Below the pieces are notes generated by a model. The model searched no databases. It had not been told where the DNA came from and saw only the letters and a program-made list of their open reading frames with translations. A program made the translations under genes and the position numbers. This document shows, in pieces, positions 1 through 4,459 of a DNA stretch of 21,994 nucleotides (the first letter of the stretch is position 1; every line of letters begins with the position of its first letter). This DNA is from a virus (taxonomy: Duplodnaviria > Heunggongvirae > Uroviricota > Caudoviricetes): positions 1-21,994 of IMG/VR virus record IMGVR_UViG_2802429253_000005. One strand, given 5' to 3'.

Positions 1-158
1 TGTGAGTCAGCGAATTACATAGGGGCTCGCAGCTTTATGGCTGCAATAAAGCCGGATATAAAGCTGCAACCTACCGTCAATGTCAAAACAATGGAAGCTG
101 TGCAAAACGGGATGCGTTCATATAAATTCCCCATAGCTTCCCTACCAGGAAGGTAGGC

Positions 159-190
159 ATAAAAAACCAGCAATAACAGGCTGGTTTATA
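159..190 (-). terminator. Intrinsic terminator immediately downstream of the tRNA 3' end (minus-strand sense)
   Basis: Inverted repeat AAACCAGC (164-171) / GCTGGTTT (180-187) with an 8-nt loop; on the minus strand the stem is followed directly by a T-run (complement of A161-A166). Confidence 0.6.
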
Positions 191-199
191 TAATCTTTT

Positions 200-246
200 T
201 GGTCGGCACGAGAGGATTTGAACTTCCGATCCCCGACACCCCATGA
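200..246 (-). other. Partial tRNA gene, 3' ~46 nt only (tRNA-Pro-like); putative prophage attachment-site core
   Basis: Reverse complement reads CATGGGGTGTCGGGGATCGGAAGTTCAAATCCTCTCGTGCCGACCA: T-loop TTCAAATCC, acceptor 3' strand and terminal CCA. Sequence on the tRNA 5' side (247-290) has no matching acceptor strand (no CGGCACG), so the gene is not intact. tRNA-Pro identity is from memory of enterobacterial proL-type sequences, not from a search. Confidence 0.55.
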
Positions 247-540
247 CACTGCTTGTAAAACGCTGAGAGCCGCGCTATTGCTGGTTAAAAGCACTATTCA
301 TATGTATAAACAAACAGTGCTTTTTCAACAAAATCTGCTCTATATACTTCAATGGCTTAAGTGGTGGTTTCTCCCCATGCTTGGTAGGTATAATACCTTG
401 ATGCTAAAGTAGGTTACTCACTTGAAGAAACAGCTAGTTAGTATCAATTATGTTGCTCCAGCTGACTGAAAAAAGTTATCAATGATGCATGGAACATACG
501 CCCTTGAATTTTTCATTAGATTTTAGAAAAGGAATTGAGC

Positions 541-1422
541 ATGGGTTTAGCTGAGTGGTTTTGCGGATTTTGCTCCAATCTGACTGTAAAAGATGGTGGA
601 ACAATTTCAACTAGATATAGGAATATAACGAAGCGTTTAAATACGGATTTTTGGGATAGCAGTTCTGATACTTCTCATAGTCTCTACGTTGGATCATATG
701 GTCGGAACACAGCTACGCAAGGCTTGAGCGATCTGGATATGATTTTTCAGCTACCATATTCCGAGTATCAAAAATACAATAGCTACTTAGGAAATGGGCA
801 GTCAGCATTGCTTCAAGCGGTTAAGAGATCTATTGAAAAAACCTATGCTACCACTAGTATTAGAGGTGACGGTCAAGTGATCCTTGTACCGTTCAATGAT
901 GGAATTACATTTGAAGTCGTTCCAGCTTTCCTCAATGTTAGTGATAGTTACACATTTCCTGATGCGAACGGTGGTGGCCGTTGGAGGATTACAAATCCAA
1001 AGCCAGAAATTTCTGCAATGAGGTTAAGAAATAACATTACCAATAACAATTTGGTGCAACTTTGTAGAATGGCAAGAGCTTGGAAGCGTAAATGGGATGT
1101 ACCTATAAGTGGTTTACTCATTGATACGCTTGCGTATCAATTCATTGAAAATTGGGCGCATAGAGATAAGTCGTATCTTTACTACGATTTCATGAGTCGT
1201 GATTTCTTCAAATGGATGGCTGATCAAGATACGAGTAAGGAGTATTGGAAAGCGCCAGGAAGTGGTCAGTATGTCTATGGTAAAGGGCTTTTCCAATATA
1301 AAGCAAAACGGTGCTATAACATTTCACTCGAAGCTATAGAGCATGAAATGGCGACCCCAAAACGCGAATGGTCGGCTAAGCAAAAATGGCGGGAGATTTA
1401 TGGATCAACATTTCCAGACTAA
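541..1422 (+). CDS. Pol-beta superfamily nucleotidyltransferase, CD-NTase/SMODS-like (candidate signal synthase)
   Basis: ORF of 293 aa from ATG 541 (GGAA 6 nt upstream; the track's 535 start is TTG). Contains GSYGRNTATQGLSDLDMIF, i.e. a G[S]x9-13 Dh[DE]h nucleotidyltransferase active-site signature, with further acidic residues downstream (RGDGQ, FNDG). Size is typical of cGAS/DncV-like or SMODS enzymes, not of small MNT antitoxins. AT-rich codon usage. Confidence 0.6.
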   Translation: MGLAEWFCGFCSNLTVKDGGTISTRYRNITKRLNTDFWDSSSDTSHSLYVGSYGRNTATQGLSDLDMIFQLPYSEYQKYNSYLGNGQSALLQAVKRSIEKTYATTSIRGDGQVILVPFNDGITFEVVPAFLNVSDSYTFPDANGGGRWRITNPKPEISAMRLRNNITNNNLVQLCRMARAWKRKWDVPISGLLIDTLAYQFIENWAHRDKSYLYYDFMSRDFFKWMADQDTSKEYWKAPGSGQYVYGKGLFQYKAKRCYNISLEAIEHEMATPKREWSAKQKWREIYGSTFPD

Positions 1423-1981
1423 GGATACACCTGAATCTAGAAGGGTTTTAGAAGGGCAGATCAGAGAGTGTTATGGTCGGGTCGTTTACTCACATAAGAC
1501 GCATGAAAAATGCTCAGACATTCTCCTATCTCGACTATCTTCTATAAAGTTTTGGCAAATAATTCTCTCCGCCTTAACTACTGGAGGCTTTCTAGCAACT
1601 TTTTTCGGCGCGGGTGAAGTAGGCACGGGGGTTGGGATTGTTGTTTCAACACTGCTTCTCATTCTTAACGCTTATACCAAAGATTATGACCTTGGTGAGT
1701 TGGCGCAAAAACATAAGCAGGCTGCAAATGAGATCTGGTTAATCCGAGAAAAGTATTTATCATTGCTTACAGACTTAGCAATGGGTGAAAAACCAATCGA
1801 GCAATTGCAGTCAGAGCGGGATTCGTTACTCGAGAGTTTACATTCAGTGTATTCAGGCTCTCCTAGTACAACATTTGAAGCTTATAAAAAAGCACAGGAC
1901 GCATTAAAAAACAAAGAAGATTTAACATTTTCTGAAGAAGAAATAGATGCTTTTCTTCCCAAGGAACTGAAAAGAAGATAA
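1400..1981 (+). CDS. 2-TM membrane protein with helical C-terminal region (SLATT-like candidate effector)
   Basis: ATG at 1400 is in frame with track ORF 1343-1981 and overlaps the upstream gene's last 23 nt (coupled operon). Two adjacent hydrophobic helices (FWQIILSALTTGGFLATFF and VGTGVGIVVSTLLLILNAY) followed by a charged, helical tail. SLATT assignment is inference from architecture only. Confidence 0.5.
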   Translation: MDQHFQTKDTPESRRVLEGQIRECYGRVVYSHKTHEKCSDILLSRLSSIKFWQIILSALTTGGFLATFFGAGEVGTGVGIVVSTLLLILNAYTKDYDLGELAQKHKQAANEIWLIREKYLSLLTDLAMGEKPIEQLQSERDSLLESLHSVYSGSPSTTFEAYKKAQDALKNKEDLTFSEEEIDAFLPKELKRR

Positions 1982-1992
1982 ATATGTTGCGA

Positions 1993-2026
1993 GGGCAAAT
2001 ATAAATATTTGCCCCTATTTTTTTAT
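1993..2026 (+). terminator. Intrinsic terminator ending the nucleotidyltransferase/2-TM operon
   Basis: Perfect hairpin GGGCAAATA-TAAA-TATTTGCCC (1993-2014) followed by CTATTTTTTTATTT. Confidence 0.65.
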
Positions 2027-2122
2027 TTGTTAATATTAATTTTAGCAGGGCTAACTTTCCGGTAAGAATTAATTACTGGTCATATGCTCCTTGGTTAATA
2101 AAATTCTATGCCTTACTTGGTG

Positions 2123-2503
2123 CTAGCTGGCTTTAATTTCTCCATGTGGAACTACAACCCAGTCGATATGGTTTTGCGTGTAGATTTTAGTTGATTTCGC
2201 ATCGCTGTGTGCCATTCGTCCTTGTGGATCGATGCCCTGCTGATCAAAAAGATGTGCTGCTAAGGCGCGAATTTCGTGAAAGGTTGGCCTTTCATCCATC
2301 GGCCGTTTGTCATATAAACCCAGCTTGTCACGCGTAGCTGAAAACGACCGACTCAAATAGTCTGGTGCAACTTGAGTGGGATGAGAAACTTCTTTGCTGC
2401 GTTTAACCTGCCGTTCCGGGATCTGGTGAACGATAAATGGGCTGGCCACGTTATTGCGACTTTCATCAATGATCCGCTTCAATTCGTCACCAATCGGTGA
2501 CCG
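2123..2503 (-). pseudogene. int: Truncated lambda-family tyrosine integrase (C-terminal catalytic fragment only)
   Basis: Translation ends ...RPTFHEIRALAAHLFDQQGIDPQGRMAHSDAKSTKIYTQN..., matching the lambda Int C-terminus pattern (PTFHELRSLSARLY...GH.SD.M...Y) with the conserved Arg, His and Tyr. The frame hits a stop at 2504-2506 and the upstream sequence is unrelated, so ~230 N-terminal residues are missing. Confidence 0.8.
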
Positions 2504-2676
2504 CTACATGACGGGAACGCTTACAATCTATTAATGTCTACTAAGTGCTAGGAGCGGACATTGGTTAATGGGGATATGTCATTCGCCTGGGGCAGATCAA
2601 GAAAGTAAAAATCCCAGCTGTCGATAATTGGAATCCATGATAAGGTTTACGGGTAACTGATTGATAAATAAATTGA

Positions 2677-2874
2677 ATGGAATATGGAAAAATGACAAAG
2701 TCAATAGCGGATAAATCTGTAACTGATTTAACTAAAGAAATCGATAAATTAAAGAAAATTGCCAAAGATCTTGAAGATGTATTACCAGAAAAAACACCAC
2801 AAATTAATTCAGCAAAAAAAATCATTGACGATGCAATAAACGAAAGAGAAAAAGAGATAGAAAAGCGTTTCTAA
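2677..2874 (+). CDS. Small highly charged, probably coiled-coil protein (hypothetical)
   Basis: 65-aa ORF (alternative in-frame ATG at 2692) rich in K/E/D with heptad-like spacing; AT-rich; followed by a hairpin terminator. No recognisable family. Confidence 0.35.
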   Translation: MEYGKMTKSIADKSVTDLTKEIDKLKKIAKDLEDVLPEKTPQINSAKKIIDDAINEREKEIEKRF

Positions 2875-2897
2875 GCATAACAATAGACTAGTCTCTG

Positions 2898-2927
2898 GGA
2901 GGCCGTACCAGCGGCCTTTCTTCTTCC
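2898..2927 (+). terminator. Intrinsic terminator after the small coiled-coil ORF
   Basis: Hairpin AGGCCG-TACCAG-CGGCCT followed by TTCTTCTTCCC (moderately T-rich). Confidence 0.4.
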
Positions 2928-3240
2928 CGTAATCTAGTAAAATCGTCGGTTTTTAATCAATTAATTAACTCATCTATTACCAACTCCTGGTTGGTTGCTA
3001 ATGATGTCATAGTGTCGCTAACGGCCTGAATTACTCAGTCCGTTCTTCGCTCAAAGCGGGCTAGAAGGTTAGCTTGCGTCGGACTTGGCGTATTTAAAGA
3101 AGTGCTGGTGGTGACAGGTTATTATGTTCCATTTCTACAGAACAAAATCACAGAAACTATACCCAATAGTTGTATTGAATCACTGACGAGACAGCCTCAT
3201 ATTTATCAGGACTGGTGTACGTCCAATACAGGAGGTTGTG

Positions 3241-3330
3241 GTGCTGGTTCTCAAATGTGCGCTGGCTATTGCTGCTGTAATGGCAATTTATTGCCTTGCT
3301 GTTGTTCTTATGGATCGCCTTTCTGACTGA
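3241..3330 (+). CDS. Possible small hydrophobic membrane peptide (29 aa)
   Basis: Strong AGGAGG (3230-3235) 5 nt upstream of GTG 3241; frame reads (M)LVLKCALAIAAVMAIYCLAVVLMDRLSD, one predicted TM helix with a short charged tail. The track's Cys-rich 74-aa ORF is an alternative frame of the same DNA. Confidence 0.3.
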   Translation: MLVLKCALAIAAVMAIYCLAVVLMDRLSD

Positions 3331-3541
3331 TTTCATATTGGCGAGGTAACGGGAGTTAAGTAGAATGGCTGCGGGTGCTTGAGGCTATCTGTCTCAGGCA
3401 TGAACACCAAAGGCAGATAGAGAAAAGCCCCAGTTAACATTACGCGTCCTGCAAGACGCTTAACATTAATCTGAGGCTCAATCTATGAACGGCAAATCTA
3501 GGTTAGCCTCTTACGTGCCGAAAGGCAAGGAGAAGCAGGCT

Positions 3542-3697
3542 ATGAAGCAGCAAAAGGCGATGCTAATCGCCCTGATCGTCATCTGTTTAACCGTCATAGT
3601 GACGGCACTGGTAACGAGGAAAGACCTCTGCGAGGTACGAATCCGAACCGGCCAGACGGAGGTCGCTGTCTTCACAGCTTACGAACCTGAGGAGTAA
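3542..3697 (+). CDS. hok: Hok/Gef-family type I toxin (membrane-depolarising peptide)
   Basis: 51-aa product MKQQKAMLIALIVICLTVIVTALVTRKDLCEVRIRTGQTEVAVFTAYEPEE is near-identical to the HokD/RelF and Gef consensus as I recall it; GGAG-type RBS upstream of ATG 3542; the track ORF from 3485 is an in-frame upstream extension. Confidence 0.85.
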   Translation: MKQQKAMLIALIVICLTVIVTALVTRKDLCEVRIRTGQTEVAVFTAYEPEE

Positions 3698-3705
3698 GAG
3701 ACCAG

Positions 3706-3785
3706 GCGGGGGAGAAATCCCTCGCCACCTCTGATGTGTCAGGCATCCTCAATGCACCCACACTTAACCCGCTTCGGCGTTTTTC
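3706..3785 (+). other. Structured 3' UTR of the hok transcript (GNRA-loop hairpin plus weak UUCG-loop terminator)
   Basis: GGCGGGGGA-GAAA-TCCCTCGCC hairpin (3706-3727, one G-U pair) and AACCCGCTTCGGCGTTTTT (3766-3785). hok mRNAs are known to carry 3' fold-back elements. Confidence 0.45.
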
Positions 3786-3839
3786 CGTTGATTAACTCTA
3801 TTATCAGAGAACCGAACTTTTACTGATGGGGGCAGGGAG

Positions 3840-4232
3840 ATGAAGAAACTTGTTTTAGTTGCAGGTGTAATGATTGCAACAGTAATGTTGGGAGGGTGTG
3901 CAGCAAAGATCGATCCTGCGTTGAAAGCAGAAGCAATGAAACCACTAACATGTAAAGATGAAAAGCAATGTGACTTTTATTGGAAACGAGCGCAATTCTG
4001 GTTGGCTAATAATTCCTCATGGAAAATTCAAACGGCGACAGACACGCTAATTTCCACTTATAACCCTTCACCAAATAGCCCATTCCTCGCTTATCAAGTG
4101 AGTAAAATGCCAAATGAAGATGGATCTGCAAGAATTTTCATCAAGCCTTTTTGCGATAATATGTTTGGCTGTCAACCAAACCCCTATCAGGCAATTGTTT
4201 CCTTTAAAAACTTCGTTAAAACTGGGCAGTAA
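3840..4232 (+). CDS. Secreted lipoprotein, Cys-rich (hypothetical; possible moron)
   Basis: N-terminal signal peptide MKKLVLVAGVMIATVMLGGC with an L-G-G-C lipobox; GGGAG RBS 5 nt upstream; six cysteines in the mature part; own terminator downstream. Confidence 0.7.
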   Translation: MKKLVLVAGVMIATVMLGGCAAKIDPALKAEAMKPLTCKDEKQCDFYWKRAQFWLANNSSWKIQTATDTLISTYNPSPNSPFLAYQVSKMPNEDGSARIFIKPFCDNMFGCQPNPYQAIVSFKNFVKTGQ

Positions 4233-4361
4233 TGTATAGCGGGACGGTAAATTATTAGTGAAAACGCTGTAAACCCTATGGATTGAGTCAGGATTTAATC
4301 CGATAATTATTCTATCGTTCCTTTACAAGTCCGGCATATTACCTTCAGTTTGTTTTAGCAT

Positions 4362-4388
4362 ACCCGCTTCGGCGGGTTTTGTTTTTTT
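4362..4388 (+). terminator. Intrinsic terminator after the lipoprotein gene
   Basis: CCCGC-TTCG-GCGGG hairpin (4363-4376) followed by TTTTGTTTTTTT. Confidence 0.7.
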
Positions 4389-4459
4389 CTGGCATTCTGG
4401 TTTACAATACGCACGCCAGCCTGAACAACTGGCACCTGCTGCGCCAGCAGAGACAACCG

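Follow-up and report, generated by a model that had tools for sequence, protein, structure and literature searches.

The hok gene near the left end of this Caudoviricetes sequence was read, in an initial annotation, as a stand-alone type I toxin gene without a relBE partner, placed exactly at the scar of a truncated prophage. This poses three questions: (i) whether the toxin gene has an antitoxin of its own, (ii) whether relBE is a partner that it lacks, and (iii) what a locus of this kind would do in a prophage. We considered them across the whole stretch of DNA analysed, 21,994 nt in length (hereafter the window). Regarding the first question, positions 3338-3784 very probably constitute a complete hok/mok/Sok type I toxin-antitoxin locus of the hokD/hokW lineage, for which we infer expression, toxicity and trigger by homology.

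Toxin, leader and antisense gene

The Hok peptide is intact, as first annotated. The hok ORF encodes 51 aa, all of which (51 of 51 residues) are identical to HokD of Escherichia coli K-12, and it matches the Pfam family HOK_GEF (PF01848) at 81.6 bits (cut-off 22). A second hok copy was not found anywhere in the window. The elements recognised around this ORF, including those of the mRNA and of the region directly downstream, are as follows.

3338-3366, plus strand: hok promoter (TTGGCG at 3338-3343, 17-nt spacer, TAGAAT at 3361-3366)
3373-3784, plus strand: predicted full-length hok mRNA, 412 nt, which may read through to the terminator at 4362-4385
3373-3384, plus strand: tac element, GGGUGCUUGAGG
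3425-3431, plus strand: ucb, or anti-Shine-Dalgarno box, AAGCCCC
3473-3476, plus strand: mok Shine-Dalgarno GAGG, 8 nt 5' of the ATG at 3485, read from the sequence
3485-3697, plus strand: mok (70 codons), read in the hok frame and ending at the same stop codon
3493 to 3423, minus strand: Sok antisense RNA, about 71 nt, with a G start at 3493 (coordinates transferred from the annotated sokW of 933W)
3500-3528, minus strand: Sok promoter (-35 TTGCCT at 3528 to 3523, 17-nt spacer, -10 TAACCT at 3505 to 3500), read from the sequence
3528-3532, plus strand: hok Shine-Dalgarno AGGAG
3542-3697, plus strand: hok ORF
3705-3726, plus strand: 3'-UTR hairpin of 9 bp with a GAAA loop, in the minimum free energy (MFE) fold
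3747-3759, plus strand: fbi element, CCUCAAUGCACCC
3767-3784, plus strand: remnant of the hok terminator (3-bp stem, U5), forming the first copy of a direct repeat of 18 nt
3785-4385, plus strand: lipoprotein cassette (CDS 3840-4232, followed by an intact terminator at 4362-4385)

The mok frame matches PHROG 251 ('MokW-like host killing') at 113 bits, and the arrangement of mok and hok is that of mokC/hokC in K-12 and of mokW/hokW in phage 933W. With a Shine-Dalgarno sequence of its own, this upstream frame is the predicted route for coupled translation of hok.

Upstream of both frames, TTGGCG-17-TAGAAT is the only sigma-70-like site returned by a promoter scan of both strands between 3000 and 4400. 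It is conserved in related loci and ends 6 nt 5' of G3373, the predicted transcript start and also the first position of the Rfam match. Counted from that start the leader is 169 nt long; it is structured, as had been proposed, but shorter than the roughly 200 nt then given. Positions 3373-3547 match Rfam RF01794 ('sok') over the full model at 110 bits (E = 1.4e-24; gathering score 59). For comparison, K-12 hokC scores 118, hokB 110 and 933W hokW 113.5. We rejected this match as evidence for a Sok strand, as the model is written in hok-sense orientation: in K-12 it matches the hokC strand, with the annotated sokC opposite, so it marks the conserved leader. Set against known hok/sok loci, the leader has every canonical sequence element. 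Over 417 nt, the locus shows 92.8% nucleotide identity to the annotated mokW/hokW/sokW locus of 933W.

This leader is common. Other strains have the window's 204-nt promoter plus leader at 100% identity, and a match of 99% or more is seen in 138 records; the leader therefore carries no private disabling mutation. Of 5426 complete E. coli genomes, 4257 carry it at a coverage of at least 80%, the median being two copies. None of the 30 records listed has an annotated feature at this place, and in the RefSeq records examined only 'hokD' is labelled, with mok and Sok unannotated, which is how a hok locus can come to look partner-less.

A predicted antitoxin gene lies on the minus strand. Base for base, the -35, spacer and -10 of this gene are those of sokW in phages 933W and Sp5, and in a pairwise alignment the window equals 933W at every base from the Sok -10 through the hok ATG. 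The generic sigma-70 scan (both strands, 3000-4400) did not pick this promoter up because it is a weak match to consensus (7/12). The initial annotation had pointed to 3400-3540 as the place for a minus-strand promoter; the generic scan gives none there, and the site identical to that of sokW, at 3500-3528, does lie there.

Predicted Sok begins with 14 single-stranded nt, a 5' tail that covers the mok start codon, and continues as a long hairpin and a U-run; its 5' end is 9 nt inside mok, the same relative position as for sokC and mokC in K-12. Its predicted fold has a dG of -30 (z = -5.64), and the stem includes five covarying pairs (helix 4 of the 29-locus alignment described below). Two pairs of the hairpin are G-U on the Sok strand and would be C-A on the mRNA strand, which argues that the stem has been selected on the Sok strand. 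To judge from the sequence, a cis-encoded Sok gene with promoter, 5' tail and terminator hairpin is present. The hok gene does not stand alone, since the locus also has an in-frame mok and this minus-strand gene.

Predicted folding and the 3' end of the mRNA

The initial annotation had named two possible sources of control for this copy, an antisense RNA within the leader or folding of the mRNA, an expectation that agrees with the canonical hok/Sok elements for both that can be read in the sequence. Folded without constraints, the predicted mRNA (3373-3784) has an MFE of -162 kcal/mol (z = -6.47), and 0 of 100 shuffled sequences were as stable. In both the MFE and the centroid folds, tac (3373-3384) and fbi (3747-3759) form 12 bp with U3753 bulged, a predicted fold-back of the full-length mRNA. 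In the full-length fold, AGCC at 3426-3429 pairs with GGCU at 3475-3478, covering the mok Shine-Dalgarno GAGG. When the RNA is truncated to end at 3746, tac is predicted to refold onto AAGCCCC (3425-3431), and the mok Shine-Dalgarno pairs with the dcb element AGCCUC (3505-3510). The mok Shine-Dalgarno is sequestered in both predicted folds, by ucb at full length and by dcb after truncation. In the published R1 hok model, the full-length mRNA pairs tac with fbi and ucb with the Shine-Dalgarno, and the truncated mRNA pairs tac with ucb and the Shine-Dalgarno with dcb (PMC9841398). Both conformations predicted here match that model exactly. [quoted passage not shown]

Full-length hok loci, 29 in all, were aligned: that of the window and 28 others from E. 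coli, Shigella, E. albertii, E. ruysiae, E. whittamii, Kluyvera, Pseudocitrobacter, Pantoea and Erwinia. Over these loci the MFE structure of the window is 88.6% paired; with the 3' partners slid along by 1-3 columns as a control, pairing drops to 38-45%. The 88.6% is inflated, since the structure comes from a sequence that is itself in the alignment. Counts of pairs changed on both sides are less affected by this, and there are 36 such pairs versus 10-23 in the slid controls. The hairpin at 3705-3726 is 95.8% paired in the 29 loci, with three pairs changed on both sides (helix 16). For the tac-fbi helix, 98.9% of cells are paired across the 29 loci and both sides are invariant. No compensatory changes in it were found across these loci, and because the helix is invariant, covariation speaks neither for nor against it. 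The U that is bulged in the window's fbi is a normal variant, since this base is C or U across lineages.

Some relatives are decayed. Among the aligned loci, L018 has a mutated tac, and in L029 (hokC of the K-12 type) IS186 has removed fbi; several relatives are leader-less like K-12 hokD. Inactivating lesions in the leader had been named in the initial annotation as typical of decayed chromosomal copies; we found none in the window, where tac is unmutated, fbi is retained and the leader is in place.

The terminator is a different matter, and its degenerate state, already remarked on, can be explained: a 595-nt lipoprotein gene cassette has split it. After fbi, K-12 and E. coli LR-24 have ACCCGCTTCGGCGGGTTTT(T)G, with a dG of about -13, whereas in the window and in UMNF18 ACCCGCTTCGGCG and then TTTTTCC stand there, so that the stem is down to 3 bp. 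The two copies of the direct repeat (3767-3784 and 4362-4379) are spaced by 595. The remnant stem at 3770-3779 has a dG of -3.1, versus -12.8 for K-12 hokD and -13.1 for the copy at 4362-4377, and a terminator scan did not detect the remnant. The cassette encodes a 130-aa lipoprotein that matches PHROG 16082 (function unknown) at 278 bits and has a weakly Cor-like N-terminus. It is absent from LR-24 and K-12, whose hok terminator is intact. It occurs in 255 complete E. coli genomes, 250 of them with the same hok junction, which is also that of UMNF18. Being common to about 250 genomes, the split terminator is therefore a feature of a lineage and not private decay.

With the terminator crippled, the mRNA may in reality end at a different place, and lose fbi at a different time, than textbook hok mRNAs do. 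No promoter-like site was found by the sigma-70 scan between hok and the lipoprotein gene. It is possible, though on balance doubtful, that the hok mRNA is a bicistronic hok-lipoprotein transcript of about 1 kb that ends at 4385 in about 250 of the 5426 genomes. If so, fbi would lie about 625 nt from the 3' end, altering the 3'-trimming clock that activates hok, and the cargo gene would use the constitutive hok promoter and an unusually stable mRNA.

Prophage setting and the relBE arrangement

The hok locus sits in the nin-to-lysis region of a Qin-like lambdoid prophage. Downstream of hok are a rem-like ORF, DUF968/YdfU, RusA, Q, holin and lysozyme. On the 5' side, the following were recognised.

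535-1422: SMODS/cyclase gene of a CBASS type I pair
1343-1981: SLATT_4/2TM effector gene of the same pair
2123-2482, minus strand: C-terminal fragment of a recombinase

The Pfam matches of the ORFs 5' of hok are to SMODS, SLATT_4 and a phage-integrase fragment. The initial annotation had stated that relE and relB are missing upstream, and this holds for the whole 22-kb window: a tblastn search with the K-12 RelE and RelB proteins gave a best E of 0.13. The relB-relE-hokD arrangement is not found here, and the corresponding sequence reads instead as a full hok leader.

Treating relBE as the partner of hok is another matter. The Hok protein of K-12 Qin hokD (relF) is identical to that of the window; its 3' UTR is as in the window, including the GAAA hairpin and fbi, and so are its downstream neighbours (the rem-like gene, ydfU/DUF968 and Q). 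Upstream, only about 15 nt 5' of the ATG are homologous (AGGAGAAGCAGGCT); in K-12 the promoter, tac, ucb, mok and Sok, all of which the window has, are replaced by the 3' end of relE. The K-12 hokD terminator is intact, unlike the hok-proximal one in the window. Because the K-12 relB-relE-hokD layout is a rearranged form without promoter, tac, ucb, mok or Sok, relBE is not a missing partner. The K-12 layout is the exception, the leader-bearing form being the commoner one (4257 of 5426 genomes). Going by these alignments, K-12 hokD is a truncated, leader-less derivative, and the window copy represents the ancestral complete form of the hokD locus.

The placement of hok exactly at a truncation scar did not stand up. 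Positions 125-3400 of the window recur at 99.8% identity in E. coli LR-24, inside a complete Qin-like prophage, where the shared cassette lies between the replication genes and hokD. We considered the recombinase fragment at 2123-2482 as a truncated prophage integrase and rejected it; because the same sequence lies inside the complete LR-24 prophage, the fragment is part of the CBASS cargo cassette. Just one break is visible in the window, at about 125-127, where the sequence passes into the end of an IS110-family element; this point is 3.2 kb 5' of hok. In another strain, the stretch directly 3' of a transposase gene of the IS110 family equals positions 1-127 at 100% identity, and this sequence occurs in multiple copies per genome and also on plasmids. 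In UMNF18 a different gene occupies the slot 5' of hok, and homology to the window starts at about 3036. Overall, the slot 5' of hok in Qin-like prophages holds variable cargo (relBE in K-12, CBASS in the window and LR-24, another gene in UMNF18), and the hok terminator is a second variable cargo slot.

Other candidates in this region include a conserved 29-aa hydrophobic ORF at 3241-3330, which has an AGGAGG Shine-Dalgarno sequence and always abuts the hok promoter. As a weaker possibility, this ORF could encode a small membrane peptide, so far undescribed, with a functional link to hok. Pfam, PHROG and PADLOC searches of the ORFs at 3238-3330, 3102-3326 and 2677-2874 gave nothing significant, and counts of synonymous and non-synonymous changes in 3241-3330 did not discriminate it from one antisense frame. 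A 74-aa Cys-rich ORF at 3102-3326 was discarded, as a deletion of 1 nt interrupts the frame in its E. ruysiae homologue. A tRNA gene at 80-250, suspected from the six-frame translation, was also dropped: ARAGORN finds none, and the stretch resembles a tRNA 3' half by eye only.

Likely function and comparison with known hok loci

How the locus would work can be proposed from its homology to R1 hok/sok and Sp5 hokW-sokW. The promoter TTGGCG-17-TAGAAT would make a stable hok mRNA from G3373. At full length this mRNA would be silent, with tac paired to fbi and ucb (3426-3429) sequestering the mok Shine-Dalgarno. Slow trimming from the 3' end would remove fbi and release tac onto ucb, making the mRNA both translatable and open to Sok. 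Sok, an unstable RNA of about 71 nt made from TTGCCT-17-TAACCT, would pair across the mok ribosome-binding site and start codon, blocking translation of mok and hence the coupled translation of hok, and the duplex would be marked for RNase III. If Sok synthesis stopped, Sok would decay first, and the 51-aa Hok would be made and would insert in the inner membrane. Prophage induction, shut-off of host transcription and loss of the element are possible triggers.

Regarding the third question, we rank an induction-linked role like that of hokW as the most likely, followed by defence of the abortive-infection type and then by prophage addiction. Because hok is co-oriented with Q and the lysis genes, rightward transcription, antiterminated at induction, could occlude the convergent Sok promoter. 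[quoted passage not shown] On induction of Sp5, sokW RNA is lost in a RecA-dependent manner, HokW is made, growth arrests earlier and about two-fold more phage is released (PMC8621323).

The initial annotation had favoured the last of these roles, with hok as an addiction element stabilising a truncated prophage remnant. Post-segregational killing is the classical role of plasmid hok/sok, and in principle cells losing the element would be punished by such a mechanism. Here, this role seems unlikely, given that hok is not at a truncation scar and that its orientation shared with Q and the lysis genes could let rightward read-through at induction occlude the Sok promoter. Deletion of hokW-sokW from Sp5 had no effect on normal growth (PMC8621323), and the chromosomal hok loci tested showed no post-segregational killing, as summarised in bioRxiv 10.1101/2025.08.07.668861.

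A further possibility is that the locus is a decayed, non-functional relic whose elements look intact but are no longer expressed or able to be activated. The cassette has cut the hok terminator to a 3-bp stem, IS and cargo insertions lie upstream in the prophage, decayed relatives exist (L018, L029 and the leader-less loci), and the failure of tested chromosomal loci at post-segregational killing, as that preprint summarises it, could be read in the same way. We consider a relic quite improbable, since promoter, tac, ucb, mok Shine-Dalgarno and start, hok Shine-Dalgarno, ORF, fbi and Sok promoter are all there; other strains have an identical promoter and leader, and the remainder matches variants seen in the family. 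The split-terminator form has been kept in about 250 genomes, and hokW, which also lacks a hokD-type terminator, is nevertheless part of an experimentally active hokW-sokW pair (PMC8621323). Least credible by far is an antitoxin-less hok, silent or controlled by mRNA fold-back only, as the stand-alone reading would have it: the generic sigma-70 scan passed no antisense promoter, but the minus-strand -35, spacer and -10 are those of the experimentally validated sokW promoter, the Sok hairpin (z = -5.6) has covarying stem pairs, and its wobbles are G-U on the Sok strand versus C-A on the mRNA strand.

The complete hok/mok/Sok system that we favour is an ordinary member of a well-known family, of a kind found in many lambdoid prophages of E. 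coli and near the experimentally characterised hokW-sokW, and in that sense is already known. Its value is corrective: this is a complete hokD-type locus, of which relF/hokD of K-12 is a leader-less fragment. The HokD coding sequence has served as a toxic control (bioRxiv 10.1101/2025.08.07.668861).

Of the well-studied relatives, E. coli hokC (gef)/mokC/sokC has an in-frame mok with a common hok stop and a Sok 5' end 9 nt inside mok. Its RF01794 score is similar to that of the window, and nucleotide identity is about 75%. The Sok hairpin of hokC is shorter than the window's, and its terminator overlaps fbi directly.

The hok/sok system of plasmid R1 has the same elements and the same predicted conformational switch as the window, and both match RF01794; the window's Sok hairpin has a 16-nt insertion relative to the Rfam consensus. 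R1 hok/sok is carried on a plasmid, whereas the window copy is in a prophage, and the reading frames of mok and hok differ in R1 but coincide in the window. Protein identity between HokW and R1 Hok is about 44% (PMC8621323).

The closest comparison is with hokW of the Stx phages 933W and Sp5 (VT2-Sakai), which, like the window copy, is carried on a lambdoid phage or prophage. In 933W, mok and hok are likewise in frame, and sokW is 71 nt long and in the same place as Sok in the window. The tac and fbi elements are identical except for the bulged fbi base, U in the window and C in 933W. HokW differs from the window's Hok at a few C-terminal residues. The codons after the mok start, and hence the Sok 5' tail, are GCCGUUCAUAGAUU in the window versus GUUCAGCAUGGAUU in 933W; because the tails differ, the specificity of Sok may not be interchangeable with that of sokW. 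Right after fbi the 933W sequence diverges from the window, hokW being without the hokD-type terminator, and 933W has a ygiW-like gene as its downstream cargo where the window has the lipoprotein gene. In Sp5, sokW RNA was detected with a probe of sense sequence from the region equivalent to about 3463-3492 (PMC8621323). HokW of Sp5 is toxic and is neutralised by sokW expressed from its own promoter (PMC8621323, Takada et al.), and replacement of the sokW -10 (plus-strand AGGTTA to CGGCTC, primers YO-421/422) restores toxicity (PMC8621323).

Annotation and variation of hok loci

None of the 30 RefSeq records listed for hok leader matches in a collection of complete E. coli genomes (ecoli_genomes, H121-H150) carries a PGAP feature under the leader, and the only call at the locus is 'hokD'. 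As a consequence, mok and Sok are unannotated in those 30 records, and annotation as 'hokD' alone invites misreading as an 'orphan toxin'. Useful negative controls for the appearance of an inactivated copy are provided by decayed hok loci in other genomes, for example L018:1348-1769, L029:1366-1765, and L019, L021, L058 and L062. One decayed locus has a mutated version (GACTGCATGTGGCT) of tac, the 5' pairing element of hok mRNA; one, a K-12-type hokC, has foreign sequence in place of its 3' end, including the 3' pairing element fbi; and several are relE-hokD copies without a leader.

Codon 47 of hok (window 3680-3683) reads UAC followed by G, placing Tyr47 in a UUACGAA context that is unpaired in the MFE fold (predicted for window 3373-3784). 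This context is the TadA A-to-I editing motif, at which editing is reported in the literature to recode Tyr to Cys in a number of hok mRNAs. At this codon Cys is hard-coded (TGC) in the Pseudocitrobacter copies and in one Pantoea copy of alignment A2 (the window plus 28 other full-length hok loci).

A candidate small ORF and a lipoprotein gene flanking hok

3241-3330, candidate 29-aa hydrophobic ORF, unannotated; SD AGGAGG at 3230-3235
3785-4385, 130-aa lipoprotein gene inserted in the hok terminator; lipobox LGGC; PHROG 16082

The small ORF (VLVLKCALAIAAVMAIYCLAVVLMDRLSD), whose end lies 8 nt upstream of the hok -35, has no family match. It remains open, with only conservative replacements, in six distinct variants; one of these is the copy of phage HannyBb, which is 84% identical. 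Because the synonymous/non-synonymous ratio is similar in one antisense frame, we consider the ORF only a coding candidate. Just four phages in the phage collection have it; in the two whose flanks were read (Tritos and HannyBb), it lies directly upstream of hok.

On the other side, the two copies of an 18-nt direct repeat bracket the lipoprotein gene. The N-terminus of the lipoprotein faintly resembles Cor. The gene occurs in 255 complete E. coli genomes, with the same hok junction in 250 of these. No promoter-like site of its own was found for this gene, and it may be co-transcribed with hok.

The CBASS cassette and the start of the window

535-1981, two-gene CBASS type I system; whole cassette 125-2500
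2123-2482, minus strand, recombinase C-terminal fragment
about 196-250, minus strand, tRNA-3'-half-like stretch, seen by eye

The CBASS genes, which overlap by ~80 nt, encode, in this order, a SMODS cyclase (PADLOC Cyclase, 477 bits) and a SLATT_4 2TM effector (PADLOC, 280 bits). They are accompanied in the cassette by the recombinase fragment and the tRNA-like stretch, in which ARAGORN predicted no tRNA.

In E. coli CUVET18-1475, the sequence directly 3' of an IS110-family transposase gene is 100% identical to window positions 1-127. This stretch is found in 244 genomes, with a maximum of six copies in any one of them, and plasmids carry it too. Given this identity and the multicopy, plasmid-borne occurrence, the window probably begins within an IS inserted beside the CBASS cassette. 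The IS/cassette junction itself was found in none of the complete E. coli genomes of the collection.

The same cassette is present in E. coli LR-24, within a complete Qin-like prophage, where it occupies the position held by relBE in K-12 Qin (relB-relE-hokD). This slot looks like a variable site for defence/TA cargo.
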